DNA of 64,000 nucleotides from an uncultured Candidatus Saccharibacteria bacterium (GTDB taxonomy: Bacteria > Patescibacteriota > Minisyncoccia > Minisyncoccales > Staskawiczbacteraceae): the NCBI GenBank assembly GCA_964479955.1, contig CAYZNK010000003.1, positions 2,329-66,328 of the forward strand, read 5' to 3'. The position numbers and the translations under genes are program-made. Shown here piece by piece: positions 1,940 to 23,641 of this stretch (its first letter is position 1; each line of letters starts with the position of its first letter). A model generated the notes under the pieces. It did no database searches, had not been told where the DNA came from, and saw nothing but the letters and a program-made list of their open reading frames with translations.

Positions 1940-2049
1940 ATATCTAATGAATGACGCCAATCCTCGAAGGAGTCCAGAGCGTCCCGAGTAGATAACTTGT
2001 AGACAAGTAAATTACCCCTATTTTCAAGGTTAAGCTACTATACAGACCT

Positions 2050-3795: not shown

Positions 3796-3796
3796 T

Positions 3797-5844: not shown

Positions 5845-8753
5845 AATTTAACGAACAATATACAATTGAATATCACATCATAAAATTCATACGAGAAAAA
5901 CTCGGCTATGAATATATTCCTGCGGAAGAATTTTCTAAACTCCGTTCTTTTGAAACTGAGTATATTATCACTTCTCATCTTTTGGAAGCGGTAAAGAAAA
6001 TTAACAATATTGACGATGCTGTAGCACAAAGCGTTGTGAGAGAAGTTAAAAAATCAGATACAAACGAAGCATTTCTACTCGTGATGCGAAACGGTATCAA
6101 TTTGAAAGATCCAAATACTGGTAACTTCCGCGATTATAAGATTGTTGATTTTGATAATCCTGAAAATAATCATTTTGTCGTTACTAATCAATTCTATTTT
6201 GAGGGAGCAACTGAAAACATCCGCCCTGATGTGATGATTTTCCTTAATGGTTTACCAGTTTGCGACATAGAGGCCAAAAGCCCTACTGCTTCCAGTAGTG
6301 TAAGTTTTGAAAATGCTATTGATCAGTTAAAGCGATATGAGAAAGTCGCACCTAAGCTTTTCCTACCTAACTGCCTTAATATTGCCACTGATGGTCTTAA
6401 AACCGTCTACGGAGCGACTTATTCCCCAAAGCAATACTTCCTTGCGTGGCGTGAAGACCCACAGGTTAAAGAGAAGAAATTTGAAGAAGAACTTGATTCC
6501 ACGCTTTTCTTTTTGCTGGATCAAAAGCAGATTCTTGATCTTATTAAAAACTTTATAGTTTTTGAGAAAAAGAAAGATGGAGTCACAAAGAAAATCACCA
6601 GATACCAGCAATTTTACGCGGCCAATAAAATAGTGGCTCGTGTTCAAGATGGTGAGAGAAAGAAAGGTTTGATTTGGCACACTCAAGGATCAGGTAAAAC
6701 TCTTACAATGTTTTTCACAGCTTGGAAACTTCGCTATAATCCAGAACTAAAAAATCCTAAAGTATTCATCTTGATTGATCGTATTGATCTTGATGATCAG
6801 GTATATGAAGAATTTGAAAGCTGGGGTGGACAAAATCTCGTCAGAATAGAATCACGAAAAGATCTTGAAAAGAAAATTAAAGGAGCTGACCGAGGTATAT
6901 TTATTTCAACAATTCAGAAATTTAGTGAATTGGAAGATATAGAAAATCTTGAGGGTAATGTGATTGTGCTTTCTGACGAAGCTCACCGAGACAATGAGGG
7001 TATTTCAGCCATTAAAATGCGTAATGCATTTAAGGATGCTTTCTTTTTTGGATTTACTGGAACACCAATTGATAAATTGACCCTCAATACTCACAGAAAC
7101 TTTGGCGAAGAGGGCGAACGCTATCTTGATTACTATTCTATTCAGCAAGCGATTGATGACGGCGCTACTTTGCCAGTTACCTACGAAGCCCGTCTTTCCA
7201 AATTCTTTATTGATGAGGAAAAAGTTGATCAGCAATTTAATGAACTAACTGCTGATTTGAATGATAAACAGAAAGAATTGCTTACTAAAAAATATGGTAA
7301 GAAAGAAGCACTTGTTAAGTTGGATAAAAGAATGGAAGCGGTTGCTCAAGATATTATTGAGCATTACAAGCTTTATGTTTTACCAAATGGATTCAAAGCT
7401 CAGGTTGTTTGTTATGATCGTGAAGCCACAGCTAAATACAAACAGTTGTTTGATAAGTTGATTCCAGTCGAATGGTCTGAAGTTGTTTATTCCCCGGGAG
7501 ATCCAAATAGCGAAAGCGATGATCTGAAAAAATACAATACAAACAAACAGAAGCGAGAGAAAATTATTGAGCAGTTCAAAGATCCAAATCATCCGCTTAA
7601 ATTCTTACTTGTGTGCGATATGCTTTTAACTGGTTTTGATGCACCAGTTGAACAAGTAATGTATTTGGACAAACCGCTTCGTGATCACAACCTGCTTCAA
7701 GCAATTGCCCGTACAAACCGAGTATTCCCAAATAAAGGATGTGGCAAGATTATCGATTACTATGGCGTAACTAAAAATCTCTACGACGCTCTTAACTTTG
7801 ATGAGAGTGTGGTTGATAGTGCCATGGTAGATATTAACCGTCTTAAAGAAGAGTTCTCAAAAGTTATTGGCGAAATAATGGAATTGTTTGTCGGGGTTAA
7901 TATCGAAGACCCATCAATAGATAATCTACGCCGATGCTTAAAGATATTTATTGAAAACCAGAGCAAACAACAATATTTCAAAGACAAGTACAGCCGACTC
8001 AAAATGCTTTTTGAGATTCTTTCACCCGATCCATTCCTGATGGACTATTTGCGCAAGTTTGAGTGGATTACCAGTTTTTATTTGGCTTTTGTAAAAGAAT
8101 TCCAAATCGATGATGTAGATTCTTTTTCTCTTGCCGAATATGGAGAGAAAATAAAAAGTTTAATTCAACAGAAAATTGACTATGAAGGTATTACCAAAAA
8201 CTTCCGAGAACTAAATATCCACGACTTAGCTACTTTAAACAAGCTTGATAAACTTCCCGAAGAAGAGAAGGCTCTTAATCTTGAAAAGATGTTAAAGCGT
8301 GAGATTTCAATTAACATTGATACTCATCCAGCATTCAAGAAATTCAGCGAACGACTTATTGCTATCCGCGTTGAGTTTGAAAAACACCAGATTGATTTAG
8401 CGGAAAGAATAAAACGATACTACGAACTTCTAAACGATATAAAGACAAAGACCGAAGAAGCTAAAGAATTGGGCTACACTCTCCGCGAATACGGCCTATT
8501 TGTAATCTCTGAAGAGTTTGTCAGCGAATCGGACAAAGATGTTGTTAAAGAGTTTGTAAAAGAAATGGCCGCACGACTTGAAGATGTTCTTGATGAAAAT
8601 TGGCAAGATTCATCTAAGAGAGAAGAATTTTTGAAAGAAGCAAAACGAACTCTGCAAGAATTAATCCTCAAAGACTATAAGGATAAAATAAAGGTTTCTG
8701 ATTTCCACAAATATTTAAATAGATTGGTGGATGTGGTAATTAAGCGATTTTAA
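5841..8753 (+). CDS. hsdR: Type I restriction enzyme R subunit HsdR
   Basis: N-terminal nuclease region (DIEAK), SF2 motor motifs HTQGSGKT, DEAH (LSDEAHRDNEG) and QAIARTNR. 970 aa. Confidence 0.92.
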   Translation: MKFNEQYTIEYHIIKFIREKLGYEYIPAEEFSKLRSFETEYIITSHLLEAVKKINNIDDAVAQSVVREVKKSDTNEAFLLVMRNGINLKDPNTGNFRDYKIVDFDNPENNHFVVTNQFYFEGATENIRPDVMIFLNGLPVCDIEAKSPTASSSVSFENAIDQLKRYEKVAPKLFLPNCLNIATDGLKTVYGATYSPKQYFLAWREDPQVKEKKFEEELDSTLFFLLDQKQILDLIKNFIVFEKKKDGVTKKITRYQQFYAANKIVARVQDGERKKGLIWHTQGSGKTLTMFFTAWKLRYNPELKNPKVFILIDRIDLDDQVYEEFESWGGQNLVRIESRKDLEKKIKGADRGIFISTIQKFSELEDIENLEGNVIVLSDEAHRDNEGISAIKMRNAFKDAFFFGFTGTPIDKLTLNTHRNFGEEGERYLDYYSIQQAIDDGATLPVTYEARLSKFFIDEEKVDQQFNELTADLNDKQKELLTKKYGKKEALVKLDKRMEAVAQDIIEHYKLYVLPNGFKAQVVCYDREATAKYKQLFDKLIPVEWSEVVYSPGDPNSESDDLKKYNTNKQKREKIIEQFKDPNHPLKFLLVCDMLLTGFDAPVEQVMYLDKPLRDHNLLQAIARTNRVFPNKGCGKIIDYYGVTKNLYDALNFDESVVDSAMVDINRLKEEFSKVIGEIMELFVGVNIEDPSIDNLRRCLKIFIENQSKQQYFKDKYSRLKMLFEILSPDPFLMDYLRKFEWITSFYLAFVKEFQIDDVDSFSLAEYGEKIKSLIQQKIDYEGITKNFRELNIHDLATLNKLDKLPEEEKALNLEKMLKREISINIDTHPAFKKFSERLIAIRVEFEKHQIDLAERIKRYYELLNDIKTKTEEAKELGYTLREYGLFVISEEFVSESDKDVVKEFVKEMAARLEDVLDENWQDSSKREEFLKEAKRTLQELILKDYKDKIKVSDFHKYLNRLVDVVIKRF

Positions 8754-8755
8754 TT

Positions 8756-9325
8756 ATGAAAAGAAAAATCGAGCTACATAAAAAGAAAGTCGAATACACC
8801 CTCAAGGTGAGCAAGCGAGCTCGAAGAATGAGACTGGCTATCTATTGCGATGGCAACTTTGTGGTCACCGCGCCGCGAAATATGAGTGAGAATATTGTTG
8901 AACAATTCATAATCAGAAAATCGCAGTGGATACTTGATAAGTTGGATTATTTCAAAAGCATCTCTGGGCAGGTATTTGCAAAAGGTACCAAAAAAGATTA
9001 TGCCGAATACAAAGATCAGGCGTTGGCCTTGGCTGAAAAACGAATTGGGTATTTCAATAAGACTTACGGTTTTAAATTCAACAAAATCAACATCAAGAAC
9101 CAAAAGACTCGCTGGGGTAGCTGTTCAAGAAAAGGTAATCTCAATTTTAACTACAAAATCGCCTTACTTCCCGAGAGATTGGCTGACTATATTATCGTCC
9201 ACGAGCTTTGTCACTTGAAAGAATTTAATCACTCACAAAAGTTTTGGAATTTAGTCGCTAAAATTATGCCTGATTATTTAGAAATCAGAAATGAGCTAAA
9301 AAGGAGCGGAATAAAATTTATTTAA
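8756..9325 (+). CDS. DUF45/YgjP-like HExxH metallopeptidase
   Basis: HELCHLKEFNHSQKFW zinc motif near the C-terminus and typical ~190 aa size. Starts 2 nt after the hsdR stop. Confidence 0.8.
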   Translation: MKRKIELHKKKVEYTLKVSKRARRMRLAIYCDGNFVVTAPRNMSENIVEQFIIRKSQWILDKLDYFKSISGQVFAKGTKKDYAEYKDQALALAEKRIGYFNKTYGFKFNKINIKNQKTRWGSCSRKGNLNFNYKIALLPERLADYIIVHELCHLKEFNHSQKFWNLVAKIMPDYLEIRNELKRSGIKFI

Positions 9326-9329
9326 TATT

Positions 9330-11780
9330 ATGGAAACTGCACCATATTCAATTTATATAAACCACAGACCATTTAGAATCGTTTTTTTCTTGAGTCCAAC
9401 TACAGATATTGCTTGGATAGATGCAGTTATTAAGTTCAATCGAGAAAAATGGGGAGGAAGATTTAATCCAATCATTCTTACCGATGGAACGACAATCGCG
9501 GATGATTGGTGGAAATTTCTTCGAGGATACGATCCGGATATTATTTGTTCAACAGTTCCTCTTTCTGATGAATTACGAAAAAAGATACATGTTTTTCTTT
9601 CTCCACTTCGTGTTGAAGAATTAGTTCAAGATCAGGTGTATATAAGAGTTGATGATTATCCGCTCACGATATTACCAACTGGTAGAAATGTATCTAAAAT
9701 TGGCATTCCTAATTTCGACGAGAAGAATAACCTAATTGTCTTTGAAGTTGATGCAAGCACACCGGAGATTATAAAAAGTTTCTTAGATCGAAACTTTGGC
9801 TTGCTCGAACAGGGGCAGATGATGACATATCATCTCAAAAAAGCATTAGAGACGTGCCAAATCAAGAAATACAAGGTAACCGATGAAGAAACACTCAACG
9901 AAGCATTGCTAGATTTGGGTGAATGGCGTACTCGGGCAGTATTCCCATCTCAAATTTGCGCCCTCCCAAACTCAATTAAAGAAGCGCACCATGCCTACAA
10001 TAATGAGGGTTTCGAGCTTGTTATAGGAGACAGCGCGGATGAAATAATTCGTTCTTGGAATCGCACGCTAGAAATGGGATCATGGTTACGCACTTCAATA
10101 ACTAATTTATGGCTTCCAACCGTACTTGCCAACAGCGCATCACTCAAACCTGGACTTGGTAAATTCCTTAATCGTTATACTGGGAGTGCCGCAAATGACC
10201 ACAATCGTCGAGTTAACTTTACCTCATTTACTCTTAGCGAGACTGATCTACAAACAATCGCGAATTCTTTTCAAACAACAATTTGGCACCCGAGACGTAT
10301 AACAAAATTCACAGCACATCCAATGCCAGACTATGAATCTCAAGGATCATATTTTTTCCTTAGACAGGGATTAGATTTTCATAGAGCCCATTCGAACGAA
10401 GAATATCTTGTTCTTGATGAGCCAGATATAGAGCAGGGATTTATGGGCGGAGAGAATTGGTTCACTGATTTATATATTCAATATCGGCCAGAACGTTTCA
10501 AAAACATCATAGGAAAAGACTATTGGTGGCAACTCCCTAAGCGAAACGGTCTATTGCGAGATTTACAGTTTTTTAACAAGCCAGCACGAATTAACGAGCA
10601 CGGCATGTTTAGCGTAATGATGAGGCGCAGAACAAGCATCATTGTCGGTCACGATGACGGAACTTTAGTAGTCAAAATACCTGAAGACAACTCTGTATTT
10701 CATGCATTAATTTGTGGCGAGGGTTTTGATTGTATTGAACGCGGAGATAGAGAAAGGTTTTTATCTCGTCCTTTTTATCATCTGCAACGTTCAGATAAAG
10801 GTATGTATTTATCTGGCGTTCTTGGACTTTTTCCAGATCTTCTAAATGCACATCGACTTTTTGAGGAAAGATACTGGCGTAATCTCTTTGAGCGAATGGC
10901 AAATCATAATCCAGAAAAGGATGACCGAACACAACAAGAACTTTTAAACAAACTCAGTAAAAAGATAGATTCGGGGTTGGATTTTAAGAATGATCGTGCT
11001 AAAGAATGGCTAGCTCATAATGTTTTTAACATTGCAAAAAAGTATAGCAAGGAAGAAATTGATCTCGACTACGAAACTATGATCGACCTTGCCAAAGAAG
11101 AAACTAACCAATATAACAAGAAACCTTCGGGACAAACTATTGAGTTTAATGAAGACTATTTCAGGAATGAGCTGTCAGATCTTGTCGAAATGAATATCCT
11201 ACAACTAGGAATTAAGCCACGATGTCCTAAATGCGGATATCGAATTTGGTATAGAATTGATGATGCAAAACAAGAAATAACTTGTCGTGGTTGCGGATAT
11301 AAATTTTCCGTTCCTGCTGAATCAAAATGGTTTTATCGACTGAATAATCTTATACGAGCAGCTGTTTCATTGCACGGAACGGTACCGCTTCTTATTACGC
11401 TCGGGCAGTTAATGGGAGATTCTCGATCTTCTGCGATGTTTATGCCAAGCCTGGAGCTCTTAAAAAAAGAAGAAGGCGGACAAGGAAAAATGACAATTTA
11501 TGGTGAACTTGATCTGGTTTGTATTAAGGACGGTAAGTTTATTATTGGAGAGATAAAACAATCAACTGGATTATTTGGGCCTGATGATTTTAAACGAATG
11601 AAAGATGTTGCTAGGATGGTCCGCCCTGATGAAATCATTTTTTCATCTTTAGATAAAAAACCGAATGCTTTTGTAACGGAGAATATTGAAAAACTCAAAA
11701 CCGAGTTAGCTGATTTAGAGATAAACGTTGAATGGTACCCGATTCATTATTGGGTATTTGAACCCCATCCTGTCAGATAA
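9330..11780 (+). CDS. 816-aa protein of unknown function with C-terminal zinc ribbon and PD-(D/E)xK-like motif (orf816)
   Basis: Long uninterrupted ORF starting 4 nt after the peptidase gene. CPKC-x16-CRGC at nt 11222-11300; GELDLVCIKDGKFIIGEIKQ at nt 11503-11565. No NTPase motifs seen. Confidence 0.7.
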   Translation: METAPYSIYINHRPFRIVFFLSPTTDIAWIDAVIKFNREKWGGRFNPIILTDGTTIADDWWKFLRGYDPDIICSTVPLSDELRKKIHVFLSPLRVEELVQDQVYIRVDDYPLTILPTGRNVSKIGIPNFDEKNNLIVFEVDASTPEIIKSFLDRNFGLLEQGQMMTYHLKKALETCQIKKYKVTDEETLNEALLDLGEWRTRAVFPSQICALPNSIKEAHHAYNNEGFELVIGDSADEIIRSWNRTLEMGSWLRTSITNLWLPTVLANSASLKPGLGKFLNRYTGSAANDHNRRVNFTSFTLSETDLQTIANSFQTTIWHPRRITKFTAHPMPDYESQGSYFFLRQGLDFHRAHSNEEYLVLDEPDIEQGFMGGENWFTDLYIQYRPERFKNIIGKDYWWQLPKRNGLLRDLQFFNKPARINEHGMFSVMMRRRTSIIVGHDDGTLVVKIPEDNSVFHALICGEGFDCIERGDRERFLSRPFYHLQRSDKGMYLSGVLGLFPDLLNAHRLFEERYWRNLFERMANHNPEKDDRTQQELLNKLSKKIDSGLDFKNDRAKEWLAHNVFNIAKKYSKEEIDLDYETMIDLAKEETNQYNKKPSGQTIEFNEDYFRNELSDLVEMNILQLGIKPRCPKCGYRIWYRIDDAKQEITCRGCGYKFSVPAESKWFYRLNNLIRAAVSLHGTVPLLITLGQLMGDSRSSAMFMPSLELLKKEEGGQGKMTIYGELDLVCIKDGKFIIGEIKQSTGLFGPDDFKRMKDVARMVRPDEIIFSSLDKKPNAFVTENIEKLKTELADLEINVEWYPIHYWVFEPHPVR

Positions 11781-11901
11781 TATTTGTTTTTTCGTGCAAC
11801 TATTCCTTAAACGCATATAAAAAAGGCTGTTGGTAACTCGGACTTCGCAAGCCCCTGTTATTAAGCTAAAGTACAGAGGCCTTTAAATCCTTTGGATTTT
11901 C

Positions 11902-11910
11902 TGGTAAAAT
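11902..11910 (+). promoter_or_regulatory. Possible extended -10 element (TGGTAAAAT)
   Basis: TGn-TAAAAT lies 17 nt downstream of a weak -35-like TTTAAA, just upstream of the structured region. Confidence 0.3.
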
Positions 11911-11916
11911 GTACTT

Positions 11917-12129
11917 AACAATTTAATATTACTGGCCGGAAGGCCAGCGACCTAACCCCTTTGGATTTTCCAAAGGATATGGTCGGGAAACCCAACGAAG
12001 ATACTGAACCCCGCGTTCAGCGACTCTTCGTTGGGTCATATCGGGAAACTGGTATGGGACCGCAAGGTCTAGCTGGCGCGGGGTTCTGTGTATCCAAAAC
12101 TCTATCGCCAGCCACAAAGGTTGGTTTTT
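11917..12129 (+). ncRNA. Candidate structured non-coding RNA, class unknown
   Basis: Locally G+C-rich intergenic stretch with nested hairpins, two of them capped by GNRA loops on the + strand only (GGAA at 11938-11941, GCAA at 12062-12065). Also a 10-bp stem 11991-12000/12026-12035 and a terminal T-run at 12125-12129. Confidence 0.4.
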
Positions 12130-12156
12130 ATTTATTAATTAACATTAAACAAAAAT

Positions 12157-12924
12157 ATGAACAGTCTATTTTTAGTTCTCTTATTACTCTCTTTCGTCGG
12201 TATCATTGTCGGATTAATAAAACCGTCAGTGGTAAAAATGAAATCACGTAAACAATCACTGTTAGTATTCGGTGGCTCAACAGTTTTATTCTTTTTATTA
12301 TTCGGAGTAACAGCCGACCCAGCTCCAGTCACAACTCCAACTCCAGTAGCTCAAGTCGAGCAAGCTGAAAATCAAAAGGTGCCAGAAATTGAAAAGCCAA
12401 TAACGCAGGAAGTAGAACAGCCAAAGCCAGAACCAGTTGCACAATCAAAAACTCTTGAGGAAAAAGTAAGCGATGCCATAAACACCTCTCTCGGTTCAAA
12501 AACAAATACCGACAAACAAAGAGTTGTTGGCGTTGAAATTACCAAGTATGACGCCAGTATGATTTCTGCGTATAAATACAAAAGTGGAGACTCGGTCGTT
12601 TATCTATTGATAAAAATAAATGCCGATGAAAATTTAACAACCAATCTCCAAAAGAACACGATGCACGACGAGGCTGTTAAAATAGCTAAGGCAGTTTTCC
12701 CGGTAGACCAAACAATTGGAGATATAATTATCTACTCACAACTTCCGCTTAAGGATCAATATGGCAATACCGAGGATGGCACAGCTATTACATACTCAAT
12801 GTCGCGATCTTTATTCGATAAAATAAACTGGAGTAATTTTAGTTATCGTGATCTACCGACACTCCTAAAATCAGAGCATAAAATTGACGACAGGAATAAT
12901 TACTCGGAAAGTATCAAGTTTTAA
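12157..12924 (+). CDS. Membrane-anchored hypothetical protein
   Basis: Two N-terminal hydrophobic segments, a Pro/Glu/Gln-rich linker, then a ~150-aa globular C-terminal domain. No family recognised. Confidence 0.55.
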   Translation: MNSLFLVLLLLSFVGIIVGLIKPSVVKMKSRKQSLLVFGGSTVLFFLLFGVTADPAPVTTPTPVAQVEQAENQKVPEIEKPITQEVEQPKPEPVAQSKTLEEKVSDAINTSLGSKTNTDKQRVVGVEITKYDASMISAYKYKSGDSVVYLLIKINADENLTTNLQKNTMHDEAVKIAKAVFPVDQTIGDIIIYSQLPLKDQYGNTEDGTAITYSMSRSLFDKINWSNFSYRDLPTLLKSEHKIDDRNNYSESIKF

Positions 12925-12933
12925 TATCAACTG

Positions 12934-14382
12934 TTATAAGAAAATGATACGCGGTCTTGGCTTATTCGCAAAGATAATAAACTGGTTGACGACAATAGAA
13001 AAGGCATCAGCGAGGTCATCGTGCTTTTCAACACCAAAACCAATCAGTTGGGTAATGAGTTCGTCGGCTCCTTTTTGGGGCAATTTTATCAAACCCTCCT
13101 TAATAGCCGAGGTTGTTAATGCTAATCGCTCTCTTTTATCGCCATGCGGTGATACTCCCTCAACGTGTAAACCACCGCTTTTAAGTTGCTGAATTAAGGC
13201 CTCTTGATAGGCAACTTTTTCGATAAAAATTTTAGGATAGTGATTTGTTCCCTTTGCAGAGGTTGCGATTGCTTTGATCTTATTTACTTGTTCTGGAAAT
13301 GTAATCCGATTATTAAATGGGAACGGTTCTACATAAGCCCATGTTTTATCTTCTTTTCTACAAATTTTTAAAGTTACGATCGACGTGCAATCAGCACCAC
13401 TTTTTTCCGAGATGGCCAGATCAACTCCTATGTAATCAATAAGATGATCGTCTTTCCATGGTCTTTCCTCTGGATCATAGTACTGAATCCATTCGGGGTG
13501 CACGACGCGATCGGTGTCAGAAACAATTCGTAACAAATATTCCCTTTGCCAAGCGGCATCGTTGCCTGATTTTAATTTCTCAGCTTCAACCGCCTCCTGA
13601 TTAGGATATTTTCCTGGCCAAGCAACATTATTATTTTTATCAAAAAGCGGATAGGCTTTAAATATTCCGTCAATTCGTTTTTCTTCTACGTCTGATTTCA
13701 AACGCATAATAAGAGAATCTTCGTGAAGCAGGTTGCCAACTATAACTAATCTGGTACTTCTATCTCCAGCAGGGATAACTTCGCCAGTTAGCCACTGATA
13801 AGTTTTTTGCCGACTCTCGCGAGTCTTTACTGACGCTAAGTCTTCCACATCATCACAAATAATAATATCTGGGCGATATTGGTGATGTCGTATTCCTCGA
13901 ATGCTTTGCTCGCTGGAAGCGGCTGTGATTCTGGCGTTGAGATTTGAAAATACTAACGAAGATGAACCCCATTCGTCACTTTCTTCTTGGAACGGTCCTA
14001 GATCATTTTGGAGTAATTGGTTCCCCTCAAGCTCTCGTTTCAAATTCATCATGTGCTGTTTGGCTTGGGTTCTAGTTTGGCAAAGAATAAGCACAAATTT
14101 CTTTTCCTGTTCGCCAAGAATCGCCCATATCGGATAAGACATGGTTAAAATTGTTGACTTGGCTGAACCACGAAAAGCTACGACGAATAAATTTTTTACG
14201 TCGGTTCTTTCGGAAAGATGGAAAATCTCTTTTTGAAAAGGCGCCGTTTCGTACTTTACATAATGGGCGAAATAAAAGTGAAAAAAGAATAGATGAGATT
14301 GCCTGGTAATGGCAGTACGAATGCTACGATCCTTGAACATCTGTTCCGCCAAGGTCGGAGGCAATATCTTGTTCGTGGTCAT
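12934..14382 (-). CDS. terL: Phage terminase large subunit
   Basis: Walker A-like AFRGSAKST, Walker B IIICDDVED, and a C-terminal RNaseH-like nuclease region (IGVDLA..). The track start at 14412 is GTG; ATGs at 14382 and 14340 are alternatives. Confidence 0.85.
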   Translation of the reverse strand: MTTNKILPPTLAEQMFKDRSIRTAITRQSHLFFFHFYFAHYVKYETAPFQKEIFHLSERTDVKNLFVVAFRGSAKSTILTMSYPIWAILGEQEKKFVLILCQTRTQAKQHMMNLKRELEGNQLLQNDLGPFQEESDEWGSSSLVFSNLNARITAASSEQSIRGIRHHQYRPDIIICDDVEDLASVKTRESRQKTYQWLTGEVIPAGDRSTRLVIVGNLLHEDSLIMRLKSDVEEKRIDGIFKAYPLFDKNNNVAWPGKYPNQEAVEAEKLKSGNDAAWQREYLLRIVSDTDRVVHPEWIQYYDPEERPWKDDHLIDYIGVDLAISEKSGADCTSIVTLKICRKEDKTWAYVEPFPFNNRITFPEQVNKIKAIATSAKGTNHYPKIFIEKVAYQEALIQQLKSGGLHVEGVSPHGDKRERLALTTSAIKEGLIKLPQKGADELITQLIGFGVEKHDDLADAFSIVVNQFIIFANKPRPRIIFL

Positions 14383-14785
14383 AGTTTTTTTCTTGATTAA
14401 CTTCCTCGGCACCCAAGGACGCGAGCCGTAAAGCTTCGGTAACTATCGCTTGCTGTTCTGGCGTTAGCTCATTTTGAGGGGCAGTAATATTTCCGCTAAC
14501 TTCCACTCGATCTCTGAATTTTGGACTGCGTTTTCGGAGCCAGAAAGATATTGCTTGCCAGCTTTTTTCTCGTATCAATGAGATAAGCTGAGACTCGCTC
14601 ATTTCATTGATAAGGGCTTCGCCCTCAGCAAGCGCCTGTTCAAGTTCTTTATTAAATTCTTCATCTTCATCACGCCAGCGGTAAACGGAAGAGCGAGCAA
14701 CACCGACCTTTTCGCAAGCCACTTGAATGATCGGAATTTTACGAATTTGCGCTAAAAATAATTCTTTTGTTCTATCTTTTTTCAT
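14324..14785 (-). CDS. Terminase small subunit-like HTH protein
   Basis: HTH ACEKVGVARSSVYRWRDEDEEF, positioned immediately upstream of terL. The ATG at 14785 forms an ATGA overlap with the upstream gene's stop. Confidence 0.55.
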   Translation of the reverse strand: MKKDRTKELFLAQIRKIPIIQVACEKVGVARSSVYRWRDEDEEFNKELEQALAEGEALINEMSESQLISLIREKSWQAISFWLRKRSPKFRDRVEVSGNITAPQNELTPEQQAIVTEALRLASLGAEEVNQEKNYDHEQDIASDLGGTDVQGS

Positions 14786-16122
14786 AATATTTTCTTTGGC
14801 TTTAGTCCTGTTAGTTTTGACCAACGTTTTAAGATTACTTCGGCATAGATTGGACATTTTTCCATTAAAAAGCATCGACGTCCCATTTTTACGGCCGCGA
14901 TTAAGGTTGAACCGCTTCCACCATAAGGCTCAAAAATTAGATCGTTTCTTTTAGTTAATATTTTGATGTAAGGAATAAGTATCTCTAACGGCTTCGTACC
15001 GAAAATGATTCCTTGCCCTGATGATTTCTCATCGGCCGCAATGTGCTCAATAAAATCCGTTGGACAATATTTTTTACCTTTGCCGTAGCTTTCCCAATGC
15101 GGAGAGCCTGAGGTGGCGAACAATGCTGTCTCGTATTCAGTTTGGAGCAATTCATCTGATTCAGGTTCCGTGTTTAATACAACTTTTCCAGCAGTTCCAA
15201 CTATCGCGAAATCATGTTTATTAAAGAATTTGAACTTCGCGCTAAATCCTTGGACTCTGTTCGGAATATGCCAAATAATTGTGTTGCGATACTTCCAATG
15301 CTTTTCGAGTTCGCTCCAAATGGTTTTAAGATTCTTTGGGTTTTCGTAAACAATTATTGAGAAGTCCGGCTTTTGAATTTTGGTGACGTTATTCATCCAT
15401 AATTCCGTAAAATTATCTGGCAAGGTTTCAGTATCGATATACACACGGTCACGTTTTAATCCAAAGCCTTTTGTCACATCTCCATTTTTCTTTTTCTTGC
15501 CTTTTAAGTAATCAAGTAAATATGGTGGATCTGTAAAAACCATATCTGCTTTATGCTCGCCCATAAGTTTTAAAACGTCTGCTTCAATAGTAGAATTTCC
15601 GACCATTAACCTACTACCGTTCAGGTCATATACATCTCCTGTCTTTGCATTAATTTTTTTAATATCCAACTTTTCCAATTCTTTATTCATATCAAATATT
15701 CCAGGTGTTTCGTCGATTTTGAAAATTTCATCTAAGTCTTCGCTGGAAAAACCGACGTCTTTTAAAAATACTTCGTCAAAATTGGCGAGAAGTTCCCAAT
15801 CAAATGATCCTGTATTTTGGTTCAATCTTAAATTTAAATTTTTCTCCTTTGCTATATCAGGGATATCGATATAAACAACAGGGACTTCTTTTATTCCGAG
15901 TTCTTTAATAGCGGCCAACCGAAAGTGGCCACCAATAACAATGCCTTTGCGATTGGGAGCACAATTTACCAGTAATGGATCGACCAAGCCATACCGCTTA
16001 ATGCTTTCTTTGAGATTGACCATTTGCTCCTTAGTCCAAGTCCGAGGATTATATGGTGCTGGTTTTAATTCCGACACCGCAACATAAACGATATTTAATT
16101 TTTCTGTTTGTGTTTTATTCAT
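14782..16122 (-). CDS. ParB-like nuclease domain fused to a DNA N6/N4 methyltransferase
   Basis: N-terminal ParB/Srx motif (VAVSELKPAPYNPR...GGHFRLAAIKELG). Methylase motifs FTDPPY and FEPYGGSGST. Confidence 0.85.
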   Translation of the reverse strand: MNKTQTEKLNIVYVAVSELKPAPYNPRTWTKEQMVNLKESIKRYGLVDPLLVNCAPNRKGIVIGGHFRLAAIKELGIKEVPVVYIDIPDIAKEKNLNLRLNQNTGSFDWELLANFDEVFLKDVGFSSEDLDEIFKIDETPGIFDMNKELEKLDIKKINAKTGDVYDLNGSRLMVGNSTIEADVLKLMGEHKADMVFTDPPYLLDYLKGKKKKNGDVTKGFGLKRDRVYIDTETLPDNFTELWMNNVTKIQKPDFSIIVYENPKNLKTIWSELEKHWKYRNTIIWHIPNRVQGFSAKFKFFNKHDFAIVGTAGKVVLNTEPESDELLQTEYETALFATSGSPHWESYGKGKKYCPTDFIEHIAADEKSSGQGIIFGTKPLEILIPYIKILTKRNDLIFEPYGGSGSTLIAAVKMGRRCFLMEKCPIYAEVILKRWSKLTGLKPKKIL

Positions 16123-16175
16123 ATGCTTTATTTATATCAGTCAGTACCCGTCCTTCGTCCATAAAGCTGAGCATA

Positions 16176-16202
16176 CAAAAAAGAGGCTATTTTGAAGCCT
16201 CT
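16176..16202 (-). terminator. Rho-independent terminator
   Basis: On the minus strand, a 7-bp agaggct/agcctct stem followed by a T-run, downstream of the 201-aa ORF. Confidence 0.65.
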
Positions 16203-16237
16203 TGATATGAGTTATTAACTTGAGATACGACAGACTA

Positions 16238-16843
16238 TCAATTCTGCGTAATCGGATAAAGCGGATTTATCATATATCCACTATGAGATTTTGAAAGTAT
16301 GAGATTGTTATTTGTACCAGCAGGTAAATTCAAGGCAGTGCGTGCCTTACGATTTATTGAGCCGATTGCATCCCTAAATGATTCCGCACTTTTTGAGGAA
16401 ACATCATCCATTATTTCTTTTGTTTGGCGATAACTAGGATAATCAATTATTGCTCGAAGTATTTTAAGCCTCAATCCCTCACCACGCATCGGATAGCAGT
16501 ATTGTTCCTTTGGTTCTCTGTATAAATCACCCTCGTGCGTAAGAGTAAGTGAAATGCGATTACTCTGTGATAGTTTTGCGGTTTGAAGATATCTCTCGAT
16601 GGTTTTATCTATTGTCATGCTTGTTTGTTCGGCTATACCCATCGGACGCTCTTTGCCCATAAACATTTTTAAAACCTCAAAAGTCTCTTGATTGATTTTT
16701 TCTTTCTTAAGCAATGTCAGCAAATCTTTTTCAAATTTAACAAAAACACCCTGCTTTTTAAAGCCTTCAAATAATTCTTTTTGAAGTTTTTTTATTTGGC
16801 TATAAAGTATGGTTGCTTGTGCATTTGGTCCTAGTTTTTTCAT
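16238..16843 (-). CDS. Hypothetical protein (possible winged-helix C-terminus)
   Basis: 201-aa ORF with an ATG start, divergent from the HTH/HEPN operon. No family recognised. Confidence 0.5.
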   Translation of the reverse strand: MKKLGPNAQATILYSQIKKLQKELFEGFKKQGVFVKFEKDLLTLLKKEKINQETFEVLKMFMGKERPMGIAEQTSMTIDKTIERYLQTAKLSQSNRISLTLTHEGDLYREPKEQYCYPMRGEGLRLKILRAIIDYPSYRQTKEIMDDVSSKSAESFRDAIGSINRKARTALNLPAGTNNNLILSKSHSGYMINPLYPITQN

Positions 16844-16898
16844 AGAGATAATTTACAAAGTGAGTATTGCCATGTAAACTTATAGTAAGTCATATTTT

Positions 16899-17099
16899 AT
16901 GAAAAATCAACTGACGAAATTGAAACAATTGCCAGATATTTTAACACTCCAGCAAGCTTGTGAAGTTTTAAATTGCCACCCCAATACGCTTCGTGGCTGG
17001 GATAATAGAGATGTATTGAAAGCCATTCGTTTTGGCTCAAGAAAAGATAGGAGGTATAAGAAAACCGATATTTTGAAATTTATCGGCGAAAAACAATAA
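16899..17099 (+). CDS. Excisionase/MerR-family HTH DNA-binding protein
   Basis: 66 aa. LTLQQACEVLNCHPNTLRGWDNRDVLKAIRFGSRKDRRYKKTDI is paralogous to the N-terminal extension of HsdM. Confidence 0.75.
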   Translation: MKNQLTKLKQLPDILTLQQACEVLNCHPNTLRGWDNRDVLKAIRFGSRKDRRYKKTDILKFIGEKQ

Positions 17100-17100
17100 T

Positions 17101-17712
17101 ATGGATTATTCAATAGATTTACACGAGACTATAAAAGTTTCTGAGTATATAAAAGCCGAGTCTGAAATTGACGCGGTGATTTATCGACAGGAATTTGAAC
17201 ATCACCGAGCGGAATACTTAAAATCGAAGGCTGAATCAGAGTTAATTTTTACATTTATTTTTCTGCAAATATATACGGAGTGTTTCTTACACCAAAACAT
17301 GAGAAGGGTTGTTATGCTGGAATTCAAACCGCCACGCGACTCAACTTATACAACATGGCTTGCTAGTGAAAAAAGGTATGTTCCAGAAAAAATGGATAAT
17401 TTTATAATTCTATTCTTTTCTCCAGCCCCAGCCCCAATCCAGCAAATGGCGGATATTATTAAAGACCGTTTGGGAAAAATAAGCTCTATTCGTAATCAAT
17501 TTGCTCACGGGCACAAAGCCTCAGCATGGTCTGACTCAGAAGGCAATTCGGGGTCTACTCCTGCTAAATTGCTTCTTACGGAAACACAATTAACGCAGTC
17601 GGTAACTGAAATCAACGAATTGGGAAATGCATGGAACGATTTACTTGATTCAATTATGCCTCAGTGTAAAGCGTTAAAAAGAATAGATGATTTTAAGTTT
17701 CGCAGTATTTAA
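17101..17712 (+). CDS. HEPN-like protein (Rx4H motif)
   Basis: 203 aa. SIRNQFAHGH matches the HEPN RNxxxH(G) catalytic signature. Starts 1 nt after the HTH gene's stop. Confidence 0.55.
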   Translation: MDYSIDLHETIKVSEYIKAESEIDAVIYRQEFEHHRAEYLKSKAESELIFTFIFLQIYTECFLHQNMRRVVMLEFKPPRDSTYTTWLASEKRYVPEKMDNFIILFFSPAPAPIQQMADIIKDRLGKISSIRNQFAHGHKASAWSDSEGNSGSTPAKLLLTETQLTQSVTEINELGNAWNDLLDSIMPQCKALKRIDDFKFRSI

Positions 17713-17717
17713 ACTAT

Positions 17718-18809
17718 ATGGCCGATCAATCGTATATACATCTTAAAGATGAAATTTATTACAATGAACTCTACGACAAATTAACGATTGAGGAATGTCG
17801 ATGCTGGGAGAAAAAAGAATTTTGGGATGTACCAAGTATAAAGGATGAAGATCCTATAAAAATGAAGATTAAGATTAGTTTTGCTGATAAGGTGGTTTTG
17901 CCAGTAGCCTTGTATGCGATTAAGGGTGAACGCTACGCAAAGAAATCTGAAACTATCCGCCAGTGGATGGCACGCGATAAGGCAAAAGATGAACAAGTAG
18001 CTAACGCCGCAGAACCAAAAGGAATTCGCTGTCTGGTATGCAGTTCGCCTATGAGTTGTATTTCTAGGGATTTACATTCCGATACTAAAGATAAAGACAG
18101 GGTTCTTTTTATGTTCGAGTGTCCAAGTAAAGGACATAGACGCAGAGTTTACTGGGAAAATGGCGAAGAATGGGAGCCTCAACCCGACCTCTGTCCCAAA
18201 TGTAAATCTATTACAAATTCATCACACATTCGAGAAGGTAACCTTATTGTCACTACCAATATTTGTCCGCAGTGCGGAAACAAGGAAACTGACACGATTG
18301 ATTTGAATTCAAAAGAAGAAAAAATTGATCCTAATTTTGAAGCCGATCGTAAAAAATATTGCTTATCAGAAAAAGAGGGAGGAGAGTATGTCTCGTGGAT
18401 GGCAAACTCTAAACATTTATTGGATTCATTTAAAGAGCGGGAGCAGAACAAGGATGTTTATGAAGCAGTCGCCAAGATTAAAACGCTGGCAATTATTGAT
18501 CTACAAAATTTACTAAATTCTATAATCGAAAAAGCTGGGTATACCAAGTTGGAACTTGGAAAACCCGAAGTTAAAAAAGACCTGTTTGTAGAATTTACTG
18601 TTCAGGATAACAGGCCGGGCAGAGTTGAATATGATAGTCGCCATGGCCTCGAGAAGTTTATCAAGAAGACCTTGGAGGGCACTAATTGGCGATTGATGAG
18701 TGAGGGTATCTCGTATAAGCTTGGTTTTCTTAACGGACGATTACGAGGAGCGTCTGGCGAAGAAAACCTCAAAGAAATGATAACTGGCAAGGATACTGAT
18801 CAGGAATAA
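17718..18809 (+). CDS. Zinc-ribbon-containing hypothetical protein
   Basis: 363 aa with CLVCSS...ECPSKGH and CPKCKS...CPQCGN cysteine pairs. Lies 5 nt after the HEPN-like gene. Confidence 0.55.
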   Translation: MADQSYIHLKDEIYYNELYDKLTIEECRCWEKKEFWDVPSIKDEDPIKMKIKISFADKVVLPVALYAIKGERYAKKSETIRQWMARDKAKDEQVANAAEPKGIRCLVCSSPMSCISRDLHSDTKDKDRVLFMFECPSKGHRRRVYWENGEEWEPQPDLCPKCKSITNSSHIREGNLIVTTNICPQCGNKETDTIDLNSKEEKIDPNFEADRKKYCLSEKEGGEYVSWMANSKHLLDSFKEREQNKDVYEAVAKIKTLAIIDLQNLLNSIIEKAGYTKLELGKPEVKKDLFVEFTVQDNRPGRVEYDSRHGLEKFIKKTLEGTNWRLMSEGISYKLGFLNGRLRGASGEENLKEMITGKDTDQE

Positions 18810-18905
18810 GACAGTGGGGTGTCCCAATTTTTGAGACAGTCAATAATATCGTTTTCATGTCCGATTTGTCCCATTTAGGAAGATCAGACCCCCGACCCAC
18901 TTACT

Positions 18906-18935
18906 TTGACAGTTGAGCAAAAATAATGCTAAAAT
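18906..18935 (+). promoter_or_regulatory. Near-consensus sigma70-type promoter (TTGACA-18-TGcTAAAAT)
   Basis: TTGACA at 18906-18911 and TAAAAT at 18930-18935, preceded by TG at 18927-18928. Lies ~130 nt upstream of infB. Confidence 0.5.
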
Positions 18936-19064
18936 ACCCTTACAAACATTGAAGTCTCGGGTACTTAACCCGAGTACACCGCTGGATGTATTTTGGCAAA
19001 TAGGTTGAATTTATGTCAAATTTGATTTAATATAATAGATTGCAGTACAATCTGTTTTTTTGAT

Positions 19065-21117: not shown

Positions 21118-21624
21118 ATGAAGCCAAGAAAATGGACAGAAGAACAATTAAGAGAATCTGCTAAAAAATCAACCAGCGTTAGACAGGTTTTATATTATTT
21201 GGGGCTAAAAGAAGCTGGAGGAAATTACGCTCAGATTAGAAAATATTTGGATTTTTATAAAATTAGTACATCACACTTTACGGGCCCAGGTTGGAGTAAG
21301 GGATTAAAAGGAATCGGAAAACCCCGGATACCGCTAGAAAAAATTTTAGTTAAAAATAGTACATTCCAAAGCTTTAAACTAAAAAATAGATTATTTTCAG
21401 CAGGAATAAAGCAGCCTAAATGCGAAGAATGCGGTTGGGCTGAAAAAAGTTTAAATGGTTATTTGCCACTGGAGTTAGACCATATAAATGGAGATCATTT
21501 TGATAATCGTTTGGAAAATTTAAGAATTCTATGTCCCAATTGTCACAGTTTGAAACCCAATCATAGGGGCAGAAACATTGGTAAATATGCCCGGATGGCG
21601 GAATGGTATACGCGCAACACTTAA
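21118..21624 (+). CDS. HNH homing endonuclease
   Basis: ELDHINGDHFDNRLENLRILCPNCH HNH motif with a CEECG zinc pair. The last 36 nt overlap tRNA-Leu(TAA). Confidence 0.8.
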   Translation: MKPRKWTEEQLRESAKKSTSVRQVLYYLGLKEAGGNYAQIRKYLDFYKISTSHFTGPGWSKGLKGIGKPRIPLEKILVKNSTFQSFKLKNRLFSAGIKQPKCEECGWAEKSLNGYLPLELDHINGDHFDNRLENLRILCPNCHSLKPNHRGRNIGKYARMAEWYTRNT

Positions 21625-21672
21625 AATGTTGTGAGGCTTGTCTTCATGTGGGTTCGACTCCCACTCCGGGCA
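21589..21672 (+). tRNA. tRNA-Leu(TAA), type II with long variable arm
   Basis: Acceptor gcccgga/tccgggc, anticodon stem caaca/tgttg, loop ctTAAaa, T-arm tggg-ttcgact-ccca. Confidence 0.85.
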
Positions 21673-21675
21673 CAA

Positions 21676-22902: not shown

Positions 22903-22908
22903 ATGTAG

Positions 22909-22990
22909 TGCGGACGGTGGGAGTCGAACCCACATGCCTTTCGGCGCCACCACCTCAAGATGGTGCGGATACCAATTTCGCCACGTCCGC
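22909..22990 (-). tRNA. tRNA-Leu(GAG), type II
   Basis: Acceptor gcggacg/cgtccgc, anticodon stem ccatc/ggtgg (one G-U), loop ttGAGgt, long variable arm, T-arm gtggg-ttcgact-cccac. Confidence 0.8.
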
Positions 22991-23641
22991 TCGGCTATTA
23001 TTACTGTCAATTCTTAGTATGTCTTGTATTTTTTTAAGCTTTCTGTATAAACAAGGTACGTCTTTTTTGTAATACATTTTTGAGACCAAAATTTTGGATT
23101 CTTTTTTAGCATATCTCAATTGGAAAAAATTATTTTTTTTCGTTTTGCTTATAAATCCATTTACCCTCGCAAATAATTTAATTTTTTTTCTCAACCAATC
23201 AATATGTTTTTTGCTTGCGGATGTAAATGTTATATAAAACATAAAACTGCTACGCCATCTTTTATCCCAATAACTATAACAGCATCCGTCTCCATCAAAA
23301 TGGCCCCTTAAAAAATCAAAAAAATATTTGTCTGGAATATTTATTTTACCTATGGTTTTACTTTTGTGAGGTCCTATGCCGATTATTAAGAGCCACTTAT
23401 AAAACGCAATATCTCCAAATTGTACGTGTGGACATTTTTTTGCCGAATATCCGCTTGTTTTAAATCCGATTTTATTTTTTATTCCTAAGCACTCTCGAAA
23501 TGTTTTGATAAGCTGAATATCTTGAGATGTAAAGTCTATATGTCGTCCATCATTATATAAACATCCGTCTGTTGCTAATAGCCCGATAGCATACGCTAAT
23601 TTTGTGCTCCATTTTATTAATATTTTAGATTGAGGTTTCAT
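22955..23641 (-). CDS. LAGLIDADG homing endonuclease (two-motif, monomeric type)
   Basis: LAYAIGLLATDGC and FLRGHFDGDGC motifs; 228 aa. The last 36 nt overlap tRNA-Leu(GAG). Confidence 0.8.
   Translation of the reverse strand: MKPQSKILIKWSTKLAYAIGLLATDGCLYNDGRHIDFTSQDIQLIKTFRECLGIKNKIGFKTSGYSAKKCPHVQFGDIAFYKWLLIIGIGPHKSKTIGKINIPDKYFFDFLRGHFDGDGCCYSYWDKRWRSSFMFYITFTSASKKHIDWLRKKIKLFARVNGFISKTKKNNFFQLRYAKKESKILVSKMYYKKDVPCLYRKLKKIQDILRIDSNNSRADVAKLVSAPS

Follow-up and report, generated by a model that had tools for sequence, protein, structure and literature searches.

Do three genes packed end to end at one edge of a genomic island form a dedicated toxin or abortive-infection system, or does their adjacency reflect cargo that comes and goes beside a fixed neighbour? 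The genes lie in a 64,000-nucleotide stretch of DNA from an uncultured Candidatus Saccharibacteria bacterium (contig CAYZNK010000003.1; hereafter the window). As the sequence-only reading had it, the three ORFs share the + strand and are tightly packed, with gaps of 1 nt between the genes for the 66-aa and 203-aa proteins and 5 nt between those for the 203-aa and 363-aa proteins. The features are as follows.

617-18975, no strand: island bearing the three genes, ~18 kb; the right edge is the end of homology with sister islands at 18975, and the left edge is provisional.
16844-16898, no strand: divergent intergenic region of 55 bp between a 201-aa minus-strand gene and the HTH gene; likely operon promoter region.
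16899-17099, + strand: 66-aa HTH_17/MerR-type DNA-binding protein (Pfam HTH_17 above cut-off), probable leader gene of the cargo operon.
17101-17712, + strand: 203-aa stand-alone HEPN-superfamily protein and predicted RNase (from motif conservation, helix layout and sub-threshold Pfam matches), an exchangeable cargo gene.
17491-17508, + strand: codons for R131-N-Q-F-A-H136 (Rx4H), the predicted catalytic site (from conserved motif columns).
17718-18809, + strand: 363-aa double zinc-ribbon protein, anchor gene of the island family (from homologue synteny).

All three genes are real. Their homologues number 36, more than 215 (for the 363-aa protein) and several, and each gene shows a dN/dS of ~0.05 in comparison with an island that is ~82% identical in DNA, demonstrating purifying selection. 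Promoter-like matches at 16852-16896, within the divergent intergenic region, are weak (9/12), and a 10/12 match lies at 17073-17100, immediately ahead of the HEPN start codon. Promoter-like sites (14, versus 10.9 ± 3.4 in shuffled sequence) and terminator-like sites (3, versus 2.1 ± 1.4) both fall within the range expected by chance. A search for RNA antitoxin candidates turned up neither an Rfam family above threshold nor a tandem array, and none of the repeats was convincing.

The middle protein had been called HEPN-like from the sequence SIRNQFAHGH, which spans its residues 129-138 and includes R131, N132 and H136. We aligned 32 members of its family, down to ~17% identity and with a mean column identity of 27%, and found that no column is invariant except those of R131 and H136; conservation is at least 90% at N132, G137 and E60. 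An AF2 model of the protein (pLDDT 85.9) is all-alpha, with predicted helices at residues 25-42 (helix 1), 45-74 (helix 2, containing E60), 111-135 (helix 3) and 161-188 (helix 4), and an insert at 80-105. [quoted passage not shown] In HEPN domains the motif ends helix 3, an acidic residue sits in helix 2, and an insert separates helices 2 and 3 (PMC3710099), and the predicted helices of the 203-aa protein match this layout, including the conserved acidic E60 within helix 2.

Profile searches pointed the same way when the whole family was scanned. The window protein alone had no match in Pfam, PADLOC, PHROGs or NCBIfam, and the HEPN signal in Pfam came only from scans of all family members, where HEPN families were the top recurrent matches. 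HEPN_Apea was matched by 12 of 36 members (best 23.0 bits, cut-off 24.4) and HEPN_RiboL-PSP by 6/36 and 6/32 (best 25.7 bits, E 1.3e-5, cut-off 28.4), and one family member carries a precomputed PF18735 match. Sub-threshold matches to Swt1, HepT-like (two members), Cthe2314, MAE_28990, LA2681 and Csx1 bring the total to eight HEPN models, none of which reached its curated gathering score in any member scanned. Foldseek comparison of the model with the PDB gave no fold match (best E 0.5, to unrelated helical proteins), and profile searches of PDB sequences with close and extended family alignments found no HEPN chain. Taken together, the sole invariant R and H, the placement of the motif, the helix-2 glutamate and the recurrent sub-threshold matches argue that the HEPN assignment stands, and that the 203-aa protein is probably a real, previously unclassified member of the superfamily. 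Its family consists of small proteins of ~200 aa, and every homologue with a named source comes from a Patescibacteria/CPR assembly.

We then asked where genes of this family are found. The recurrent partners are restriction-modification (R-M) genes, not an HTH or zinc-ribbon protein. Six independent lineages share the order mod-HEPN-res (L002-4, L014, L017/L102, L103/4, L105/6 and L107/8), with gaps of 4-6 nt where coordinates were read; in L002, PADLOC recognizes the flanking genes as MTase_III (2e-112) and REase_III (5e-22). The HEPN gene is flanked by hsdS and hsdR in L013 and by an hsdM-like gene and hsdS in L110, and is found beside MmeI-like (L010), type ISP (L113) and MvaI/BcnI (L112) systems. 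In L011, the only fusion found, the HEPN domain forms the C-terminus of a 1161-aa ORF downstream of hsdR and YgjP; the N-terminal region of this ORF has no family match, and its 960 aa are unrelated to the KAP NTPase of locus L024 discussed below. Three copies, those of the window, L001 and L009, lack any mod or res gene. The window copy lies ~8 kb from the island's type I R-M system, outside the R-M operon, and the 323-aa protein encoded downstream of the L001 copy is unrelated to the 363-aa protein. The genes directly upstream of most HEPN homologues encode Mod, HsdS, a 91-aa protein, a membrane protein, or NYN, PIN or GIY-YIG proteins, and no HTH protein. The reading from sequence had also remarked that the usual MNT partner is missing, and this proved correct: there is no nucleotidyltransferase domain among the window neighbours, and no MNT gene adjoins the HEPN gene in the window or in the ~20 contexts examined. 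The family's usual home is thus between type III mod and res genes, or in or beside type I, IIG and ISP systems, with no conserved partner.

The 363-aa protein has a different distribution. As first noticed, it contains two zinc ribbons, one C3H (C105-x2-C108...C135-x4-H140) and one C4 (C159-x2-C162...C183-x2-C186); the seven cysteines are invariant in 36 homologues, in which position 140 is mostly Cys. We identified more than 215 homologues, and at least 275 loci in GTDB species-representative genomes, several per genome. Its gene typically comes last, at the end of a variable stretch of cargo divergent from the ParB-methylase, TerS and TerL genes. Pfam and PDB sequence searches returned generic zinc ribbons only, the sole Foldseek match in the PDB was a weak, S24e-like one in the C-terminal domain (E 0.03, TM 0.35-0.5), and BFVD gave no significant match. 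The 363-aa protein is the conserved anchor, or core, gene of a widespread Patescibacteria island family, and is probably no dedicated partner of the HEPN protein.

These distributions bear directly on the original proposal, a toxin or abortive module of HTH, HEPN and zinc-ribbon proteins in which the 363-aa protein would replace MNT as sensor or neutralizer. The short spacing with no predicted internal terminator would suit such a module, as would the identical three-gene order in L005/L022, an 85%-identical HEPN homologue that lies beside its own 363-aa gene by consecutive locus tags, and HEPN/363-aa adjacency in L008 and in L009/L059, which are more distant lineages. Across 80 loci of the 363-aa family, however, the gene directly upstream of the anchor belongs to at least 33 families and the HEPN gene adjoins it in only three. 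Seen from the other side, 3 of ~15 distinct HEPN contexts have the two genes side by side and ~12 of 15 lack the 363-aa gene; in L008 their order is reversed. This adjacency is no more than expected if cargo lands beside an anchor gene. The sister island L024 (~75% identical DNA) carries a KAP NTPase exactly in the HEPN position: DNA homology with the window spans the ParB-methylase gene, the HTH gene and the 363-aa gene, and is absent from 17065-17729, essentially the HEPN gene. The three genes are not syntenic elsewhere as a set, and synteny largely refutes the dedicated module, which we now regard as very unlikely. The HEPN gene is instead exchangeable cargo in a mobile island. A narrower pairing, in which the HTH protein is the antitoxin and autoregulator of a type II toxin-antitoxin system and the HEPN RNase a toxin stabilizing the island, draws on the classic layout of a small HTH gene directly upstream of its toxin with a 1-nt gap, on an HTH-HEPN order kept in L005/L022 and L016, where the HTH homologues belong to family F12, and on the frequency of HEPN toxins in toxin-antitoxin systems (PMC3710099). 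The 66-aa protein does have an excisionase-type HTH fold: it matches Pfam HTH_17 at 36.9 bits (cut-off 27, E 4.5e-9) and also MerR_1, reaches 23.8 bits against the excisionase family TIGR01764 (below the cut-off of 28.8), and in PHROG matches both HTH DNA-binding and excisionase families (the latter at 5e-4 to 2e-3). Yet F12 genes also stand ahead of other cargo, namely the KAP NTPase gene of L024 and the gene for a 1015-aa protein of L050, most HEPN homologues lack an upstream HTH, and the island's own HsdM begins with a paralogous domain (window 2131-2286; 42% identity, E 4e-13). The sequence-only reading offered a further possible role for the 66-aa protein, as the recombination directionality factor of the serine recombinase; its gene lies ~15 kb from the recombinase gene (617-1960), and it is the HsdM-fused paralogue that adjoins the latter. 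The HTH protein is more plausibly a generic leader or regulator of cargo operons than a dedicated HEPN partner, and we judge the toxin-antitoxin pairing unlikely.

Two further readings concern what the HEPN protein does. It might be an RNase that does not kill its host but works for the R-M system or for the island, for instance by processing the mod-res transcript to time res expression after transfer. Post-transcriptional control of res would fit a gene placed exactly between mod and res, as it is in six lineages; the absence of a conserved antitoxin argues against a constitutively toxic enzyme; and cells can survive the action of ApeA, a HEPN RNase encoded by a single gene with no antitoxin (bioRxiv 10.64898/2026.03.20.713152). 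Nevertheless, the gene also occurs without mod and res, next to R-M systems of unrelated type, and fused to the C-terminal end of a large protein. Such a spread typifies effector domains, not regulators tied to one system, and makes this role improbable. The alternative that the protein is a helical bundle mimicking the HEPN motif, a structural or adaptor subunit with no nuclease activity, could appeal to Pfam scores below cut-off and to the lack of a Foldseek match to solved HEPN structures, but the invariant R and H, the near-invariant N, G and helix-2 Glu, and the weak matches to eight HEPN models leave it extremely unlikely. On balance, we favor the interpretation that the 203-aa protein represents a new small family of R-M-associated, predicted HEPN RNases, carried in the window as swappable island cargo.

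We also compared the protein with known systems. The RiboL-PSP-HEPN family (PF18735), which is typified by RNA-repair or PSP neighbors, gave the best single score, in an alignment to the C-terminal half of the model that takes in the motif region; this score is under the cut-off, however, and none of the HEPN loci examined has such neighbors. HEPN_Apea (PF18739) is the commonest weak Pfam match, and the ApeA family is embedded in R-M operons in some bacteria (PMC3710099). ApeA, though, has its own ~300-aa beta-rich sensor, ApeA-NTD1, whereas the 203-aa protein consists of a HEPN-like domain only, and no PADLOC model, ApeA included, matched it. Abi2/AbiD/AbiF-type HEPN proteins are stand-alone and helical, carry R[ND]xxxH, often lie in R-M operons and lack an MNT partner (PMC3710099). 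The 203-aa protein is likewise stand-alone and helical, with Rx4H and no MNT; its family differs in being smaller (~200 aa) and, by its named sources, from Patescibacteria/CPR, and the Abi_2 profile matched in no scan of the family. HepT-MntA also includes a small HEPN protein with Rx4H, and two family members have weak HepT-like matches, but in HepT-MntA the MNT antitoxin gene is adjacent.

The anticodon nucleases PrrC and RloC offer a parallel in genomic context. PrrC is a HEPN anticodon nuclease embedded in a type Ic hsdMSR locus (PMC3710099), and the 203-aa family similarly places a predicted HEPN Rx4-6H gene inside R-M operons (L013, L110 and the six type III lineages). The best available model is that of a second-line nuclease kept silent under the guard of the R-M complex (PMC3710099). 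The ~200-aa family lacks the N-terminal ABC/Rad50-like ATPase domain of PrrC/RloC and has no sequence match to these proteins, its main host system is type III instead of type Ic, and the window copy lies outside any R-M operon. We propose that the 203-aa protein is a minimal stand-alone HEPN protein and a predicted metal-independent endoribonuclease, with an active site that would be built from Rx4H motifs (R131 and H136) with help from E60, probably in a homodimer as in other HEPN RNases. Its likeliest role would be that of an accessory second-line defense nuclease, silent until infection, the logic ascribed to PrrC/RloC and other HEPN proteins embedded in R-M operons. The window copy appears to have been uncoupled from its usual R-M partners and to sit as a cassette in an operon of HTH, cargo and zinc-ribbon genes at one island end. 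This minimal ~200-aa family, which Pfam, PADLOC, PHROGs and NCBIfam do not include, adds to the HEPN nucleases of R-M operons, and in the recurrent mod-HEPN-res order type III systems have a simple equivalent of the PrrC/EcoprrI arrangement. That a tight three-gene CPR operon is a scaffold with exchangeable cargo matters for defense prediction from adjacency alone.

Mobile elements and immunity of Patescibacteria are poorly known, and the locus directs attention to a large family of terminase-bearing islands in this group that has yet to be described; our literature search found no description of either the island or the 203-aa family. The window island encodes, in order, a serine recombinase, the type I R-M system, a YgjP-like protein, 816-aa and 255-aa proteins, TerL, a TerS-like protein, a ParB-methylase, a 201-aa protein, and the HTH, HEPN and zinc-ribbon proteins. 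TerL, TerS and ParB-methylase genes, and usually a large serine recombinase gene, mark the family; the window copy has no capsid or portal genes. The hypervariable position by the zinc-ribbon anchor holds defense genes, including R-M systems, the KAP NTPase, the HEPN gene and others. The island is more novel than the three-gene set, and a tentative possibility, to which we give less weight than to swappable cargo, is that these elements constitute a new family of phage-satellite-like CPR defense islands. On that view, the 363-aa protein would help to maintain the element, for instance as a regulator or by serving the serine recombinase as its recombination directionality factor, and the mod-HEPN-res cassettes would represent a new, three-gene version of type III restriction that includes its own RNase. 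Neither the 203-aa nor the 363-aa protein has a homologue among 50,697 phage records; IMG/VR holds one locus for each, both on island-like contigs. Between the two island ends, att-like repeats were limited to 10-mers. The island is inserted upstream of infB, and infB also follows the 363-aa gene in L048 and L038.

The three genes form the right-hand end of an ~18-kb island (617-18975), with infB, rbfA and tRNA genes downstream:

617-1960, - strand: large serine recombinase
2050-3795: hsdM of a type I restriction-modification (R-M) system, followed by hsdS, a 278-aa insert and hsdR
after the R-M system: YgjP-like protein
9330-11780, + strand: 816-aa Zn-ribbon protein
between the 816-aa gene and TerL: 255-aa protein
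12934-16122, - strand: TerL, TerS-like protein and ParB-methylase fusion
16238-16843, - strand: 201-aa protein, divergent from the HTH gene
16899-17099, + strand: HTH gene (66 aa)
17101-17712, + strand: HEPN-like gene (203 aa)
17718-18809, + strand: zinc-ribbon gene (363 aa)

The three + strand ORFs are arranged as the sequence-only reading had described, with 1 nt (TAA-T-ATG) between the HTH and 203-aa genes and 5 nt before the 363-aa gene. All three are under strong purifying selection (dN/dS ~0.05 each, measured against an island ~82% identical in DNA). A Pfam scan of their neighbours in the window found no MNT-type gene, in agreement with the earlier remark that the usual partner of a HEPN toxin is absent.

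The 203-aa protein of the window, searched alone, has no match in Pfam, PADLOC, PHROGs or NCBIfam. Its family comprises 36 clusters in a 5.8-billion-sequence collection, and when 1.84 billion representatives were searched exhaustively with a profile, only 61 proteins reached E <= 1e-3; full-length members are ~200 aa and the others are shorter fragments. The HEPN-type motif noticed in the sequence, SIRNQFAHGH, occupies residues 129-138. R131, N132, H136 and G137 are all invariant in the close family alignment, and in a wider alignment reaching ~17% identity R131 and H136 are the only invariant columns, with N132, G137 and E60 at least 90% conserved. The motif thus withstands the conservation check suggested along with the original reading. 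An AF2 model is confident and all-alpha (pLDDT 85.9, pTM 0.80), with helices at 25-42, 45-74, 80-88, 94-105, 111-135 and 161-188 and a beta hairpin at 142-152. HEPN domains carry their motif at the end of helix 3, conserve an acidic residue in helix 2 and commonly have inserts between helices 2 and 3 (PMC3710099). The model fits this layout point by point: R131 and N132 close helix 111-135, H136 is the first loop residue, E60 lies within the second helix, and 80-105 forms the insert.

When every family member was scanned against Pfam, HEPN families topped the recurrent matches, all of them sub-threshold: HEPN_Apea, the family of ApeA (12/36 members), HEPN_RiboL-PSP (6/36 and 6/32 in two member sets), and further the Swt1, HepT-like, Cthe2314, MAE_28990, LA2681 and Csx1_HEPN models. 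The alignments to HEPN models cover the motif region, and one member has a precomputed match to PF18735 (HEPN_RiboL-PSP). The sole other recurrent family, Glyco_hydro_39 (4/36, best E 0.023), was set aside as weak and unrelated. Motif conservation, predicted structure and profile matches therefore place the protein, with high probability, in the HEPN superfamily as a new family outside every curated one, upholding the original identification. The family is new and small, and has so far been found in CPR-type assemblies; homologues with a named source are labelled Patescibacteria/CPR.

We recovered ~15 distinct genomic contexts of the HEPN gene among loci compared with the window (L-numbers). 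In six independent lineages (L002-4, L014, L017/L102, L103/104, L105/106, L107/108) it sits between mod and res of a type III R-M system, with gaps of 4-6 nt where coordinates were read. The L002 neighbours match PADLOC MTase_III (2.4e-112) and REase_III (5e-22), and the other res genes of these cassettes encode the same ResIII and RE_endonuc domains. Elsewhere, the gene has hsdS on one side and a trypsin-like gene plus hsdR on the other (L013), abuts an MmeI-like enzyme (L010), accompanies RelA/SpoT, RNase T and GmrSD genes in a defence island, or stands between grpE and dnaK. Among distant members, the L110 gene is flanked by an hsdM-like gene plus NYN on one side and by hsdS on the other. 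The L112 copy neighbours an MvaI/BcnI R-M system together with a PIN protein and an SMC-like ATPase, and the L113 copy neighbours a GIY-YIG protein as well as a type ISP enzyme. Across the ~15 contexts and these three distant members we found no MNT and no single conserved neighbour; the recurrent association is with restriction-modification.

In L011, the HEPN domain forms residues 963-1156 of a 1161-aa ORF (2677-6162, + strand) downstream of hsdR and a YgjP-like gene, and its final ~195 residues share 56% identity with the 203-aa protein. This ORF is an apparent fusion; a frameshift or assembly error is also conceivable. Scans of its 960-aa N-terminal part against Pfam and PADLOC gave no match, and this part proved unrelated to the KAP NTPase of L024, a sister island.

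Small nuclease-type genes lie directly upstream of several HEPN members: PIN_12 plus a 91-aa protein (L002, 6807-7956), NYN (L110, 5182-5688), PIN_3 (L112, 5373-5921) and GIY-YIG (L113, 2058-2372). A small nuclease gene beside a HEPN gene may thus be a recurring two-nuclease pairing in R-M-linked loci. The type III mod is split into two ORFs in L103 (4733-6999, 417+338 aa) and L105 (4737-6999, 434+281 aa). In both, the second ORF corresponds to the C-terminal part of PADLOC's MTase_III model. The split could stem from phase variation, from decay or from a sequencing artefact.

The 363-aa protein belongs to a large family, with >215 clusters, 275 loci in GTDB species representatives and several copies in some genomes. 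We mapped gene families over 79 loci of this family and the window. The 363-aa gene is typically the last of a + strand block diverging from the ParB-methylase, TerS and TerL genes, at 246 bp to 4.2 kb from the ParB-methylase gene in 23 loci. Directly upstream of it we found at least 33 families across the 80 loci, a one-off gene in 26 of them; the position is filled, among others, by hsdR/M/S, YgjP-like, KAP NTPase or DUF2130 genes and by many genes for large unknown proteins. The HEPN gene holds this position in just three loci. Between the window and L024, DNA is shared at 73-78% identity over the ParB-methylase (14401-16151), the HTH gene (16873-17064) and the 363-aa gene with its tail (17730-18975). 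Nothing is shared over 17065-17729, where L024 encodes a 1087-aa KAP NTPase with similarity to QatA. Depending on the island, the gene downstream of the HTH family (F12) is the HEPN gene, that of the KAP NTPase or one for a 1015-aa protein. The anchor role of the 363-aa gene, the variable position upstream of it, the swap at the DNA level and the non-specific HTH therefore define a scaffold of HTH, cargo and anchor, in which the HEPN gene is cargo. The dedicated three-gene module proposed from sequence is not supported.

Both ribbons seen in the 363-aa protein are real features of its family: one is C3H (C105, C108, C135, H140) and one C4 (C159, C162, C183, C186), with Cys positions invariant in 36 homologues. 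Its model (pLDDT 84, pTM 0.56) has four parts, from the N-terminus a helical hairpin, a two-ribbon beta domain, a helical domain and a small alpha/beta domain bearing a near-invariant TNWRLMS...YRLGFLxGRLRG motif; apart from generic Zn-ribbon matches, fold and sequence searches gave a single weak one, S24e-like. The gene lies at the island edge, often near a recombinase or chromosomal junction, and infB follows it in the window, L048 and L038. From this position we speculate that the protein has an element-maintenance or regulatory role. The 66-aa protein scores above the Pfam HTH_17 cut-off and also matches MerR_1, with weaker excisionase-family matches. The N-terminus of HsdM (window 2131-2286), whose gene starts 90 bp from the divergent serine recombinase gene, is HTH_17-like and paralogous to it (42% identity over 52 aa, E 4e-13), and both island cargo operons therefore begin with the same DNA-binding module. 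The HTH could be a cargo-operon regulator or an excision factor.

HEPN domains act as RNases that need no metal and have composite Rx4-6H sites; members of several HEPN families serve as second-line effectors within R-M operons (PMC3710099). PrrC is kept inactive by the EcoprrI complex and freed when phage T4 blocks restriction (PMC3710099). ApeA illustrates that defence by a HEPN RNase can spare the cell (bioRxiv 10.64898/2026.03.20.713152). We infer RNase activity for the 203-aa protein, which by analogy may be a latent RNase backing up restriction. In the mod-HEPN-res cassettes it would probably be restrained by, or responsive to, the R-M complex; the window copy may work by itself or together with the type I system of the island. 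The HEPN family follows a known principle, that of R-M-linked HEPN nucleases on mobile defence islands.

The tight HTH-HEPN spacing would suit a toxin-antitoxin pair, with the HTH as partner; that HTH also precedes unrelated cargo, and we consider such a pair unlikely. Searches of Rfam, tandem arrays and repeats gave no RNA antitoxin candidate. A role for the HEPN protein as regulator of res expression would match its place just before res in the type III cassettes; the family also occurs beside other enzyme types, and the odds of this role are somewhat poorer still. The sub-threshold Pfam scores would fit a non-catalytic HEPN look-alike, and the invariance of the motif's R and H speaks for a working site; this reading is very improbable. 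A latent RNase linked to restriction is the account we prefer.

The island family (window 617-18975; loci L022-L102) combines TerL, TerS and ParB-methylase genes, often with a large serine recombinase, in at least 275 loci of species-representative genomes, with two copies on one contig (JBAXYM010000008.1). Against annotated phage terminases, the window TerL shows 24-28% identity. The island ORFs include no recognised capsid or portal gene, and IMG/VR classes two contigs with this island type as viral. The family is possibly a satellite-like element of CPR bacteria; our literature searches found no description of it. Island-bearing contigs titled Methanoregula, Bdellovibrionales, Gammaproteobacteria or Woesearchaeota MAGs (L022, L027, L035, L066, L067, L078 and others) probably reflect mis-binning or mislabelling, not true host range. 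A terminase-bearing island family with a hypervariable defence position is a more unusual lead than the three genes.

Several further features of the island and its downstream flank were noted. The 278-aa gene between hsdS and hsdR (5008-5844, + strand), in a PrrC-like position within the type I operon, matches the PADLOC defence candidate PDC-S32 (E 6e-18). The 201-aa protein has no family match. It is conserved among the closest islands: the L005/L022 copies are 78% identical, the L024 copy 32%, and L031 has a fragment. The 816-aa protein, without a family match in PADLOC, PHROGs or NCBIfam scans, combines a CxxC...CxxC ribbon with a C-terminal stretch, ELDLVCIKDGKFIIGEIKQ, that by eye resembles a PD-(D/E)xK nuclease motif; in L042 (1120-3522) and L043 (3571-5973) the gene immediately before the 363-aa gene encodes a homologue of 50% identity. 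A perfect 7-bp hairpin, CTCGGGT-ACTTA-ACCCGAG (18955-18973), lies where DNA homology with the sister islands stops (18975), before the infB promoter region, and is a candidate island boundary or terminator that lacks a following T-run. Within the downstream tRNA cluster, we read two homing-endonuclease-like ORFs: an HNH-type one (21118-21624, + strand) containing ELDHINGDHFDNRLENLRILCPNCH, whose 3' end overlaps tRNA-Leu(taa) (21589-21673), and a LAGLIDADG-like one (22955-23641, - strand; ...LLATDGC...FDGDGC...), which overlaps tRNA-Leu(gag) (22908-22990).
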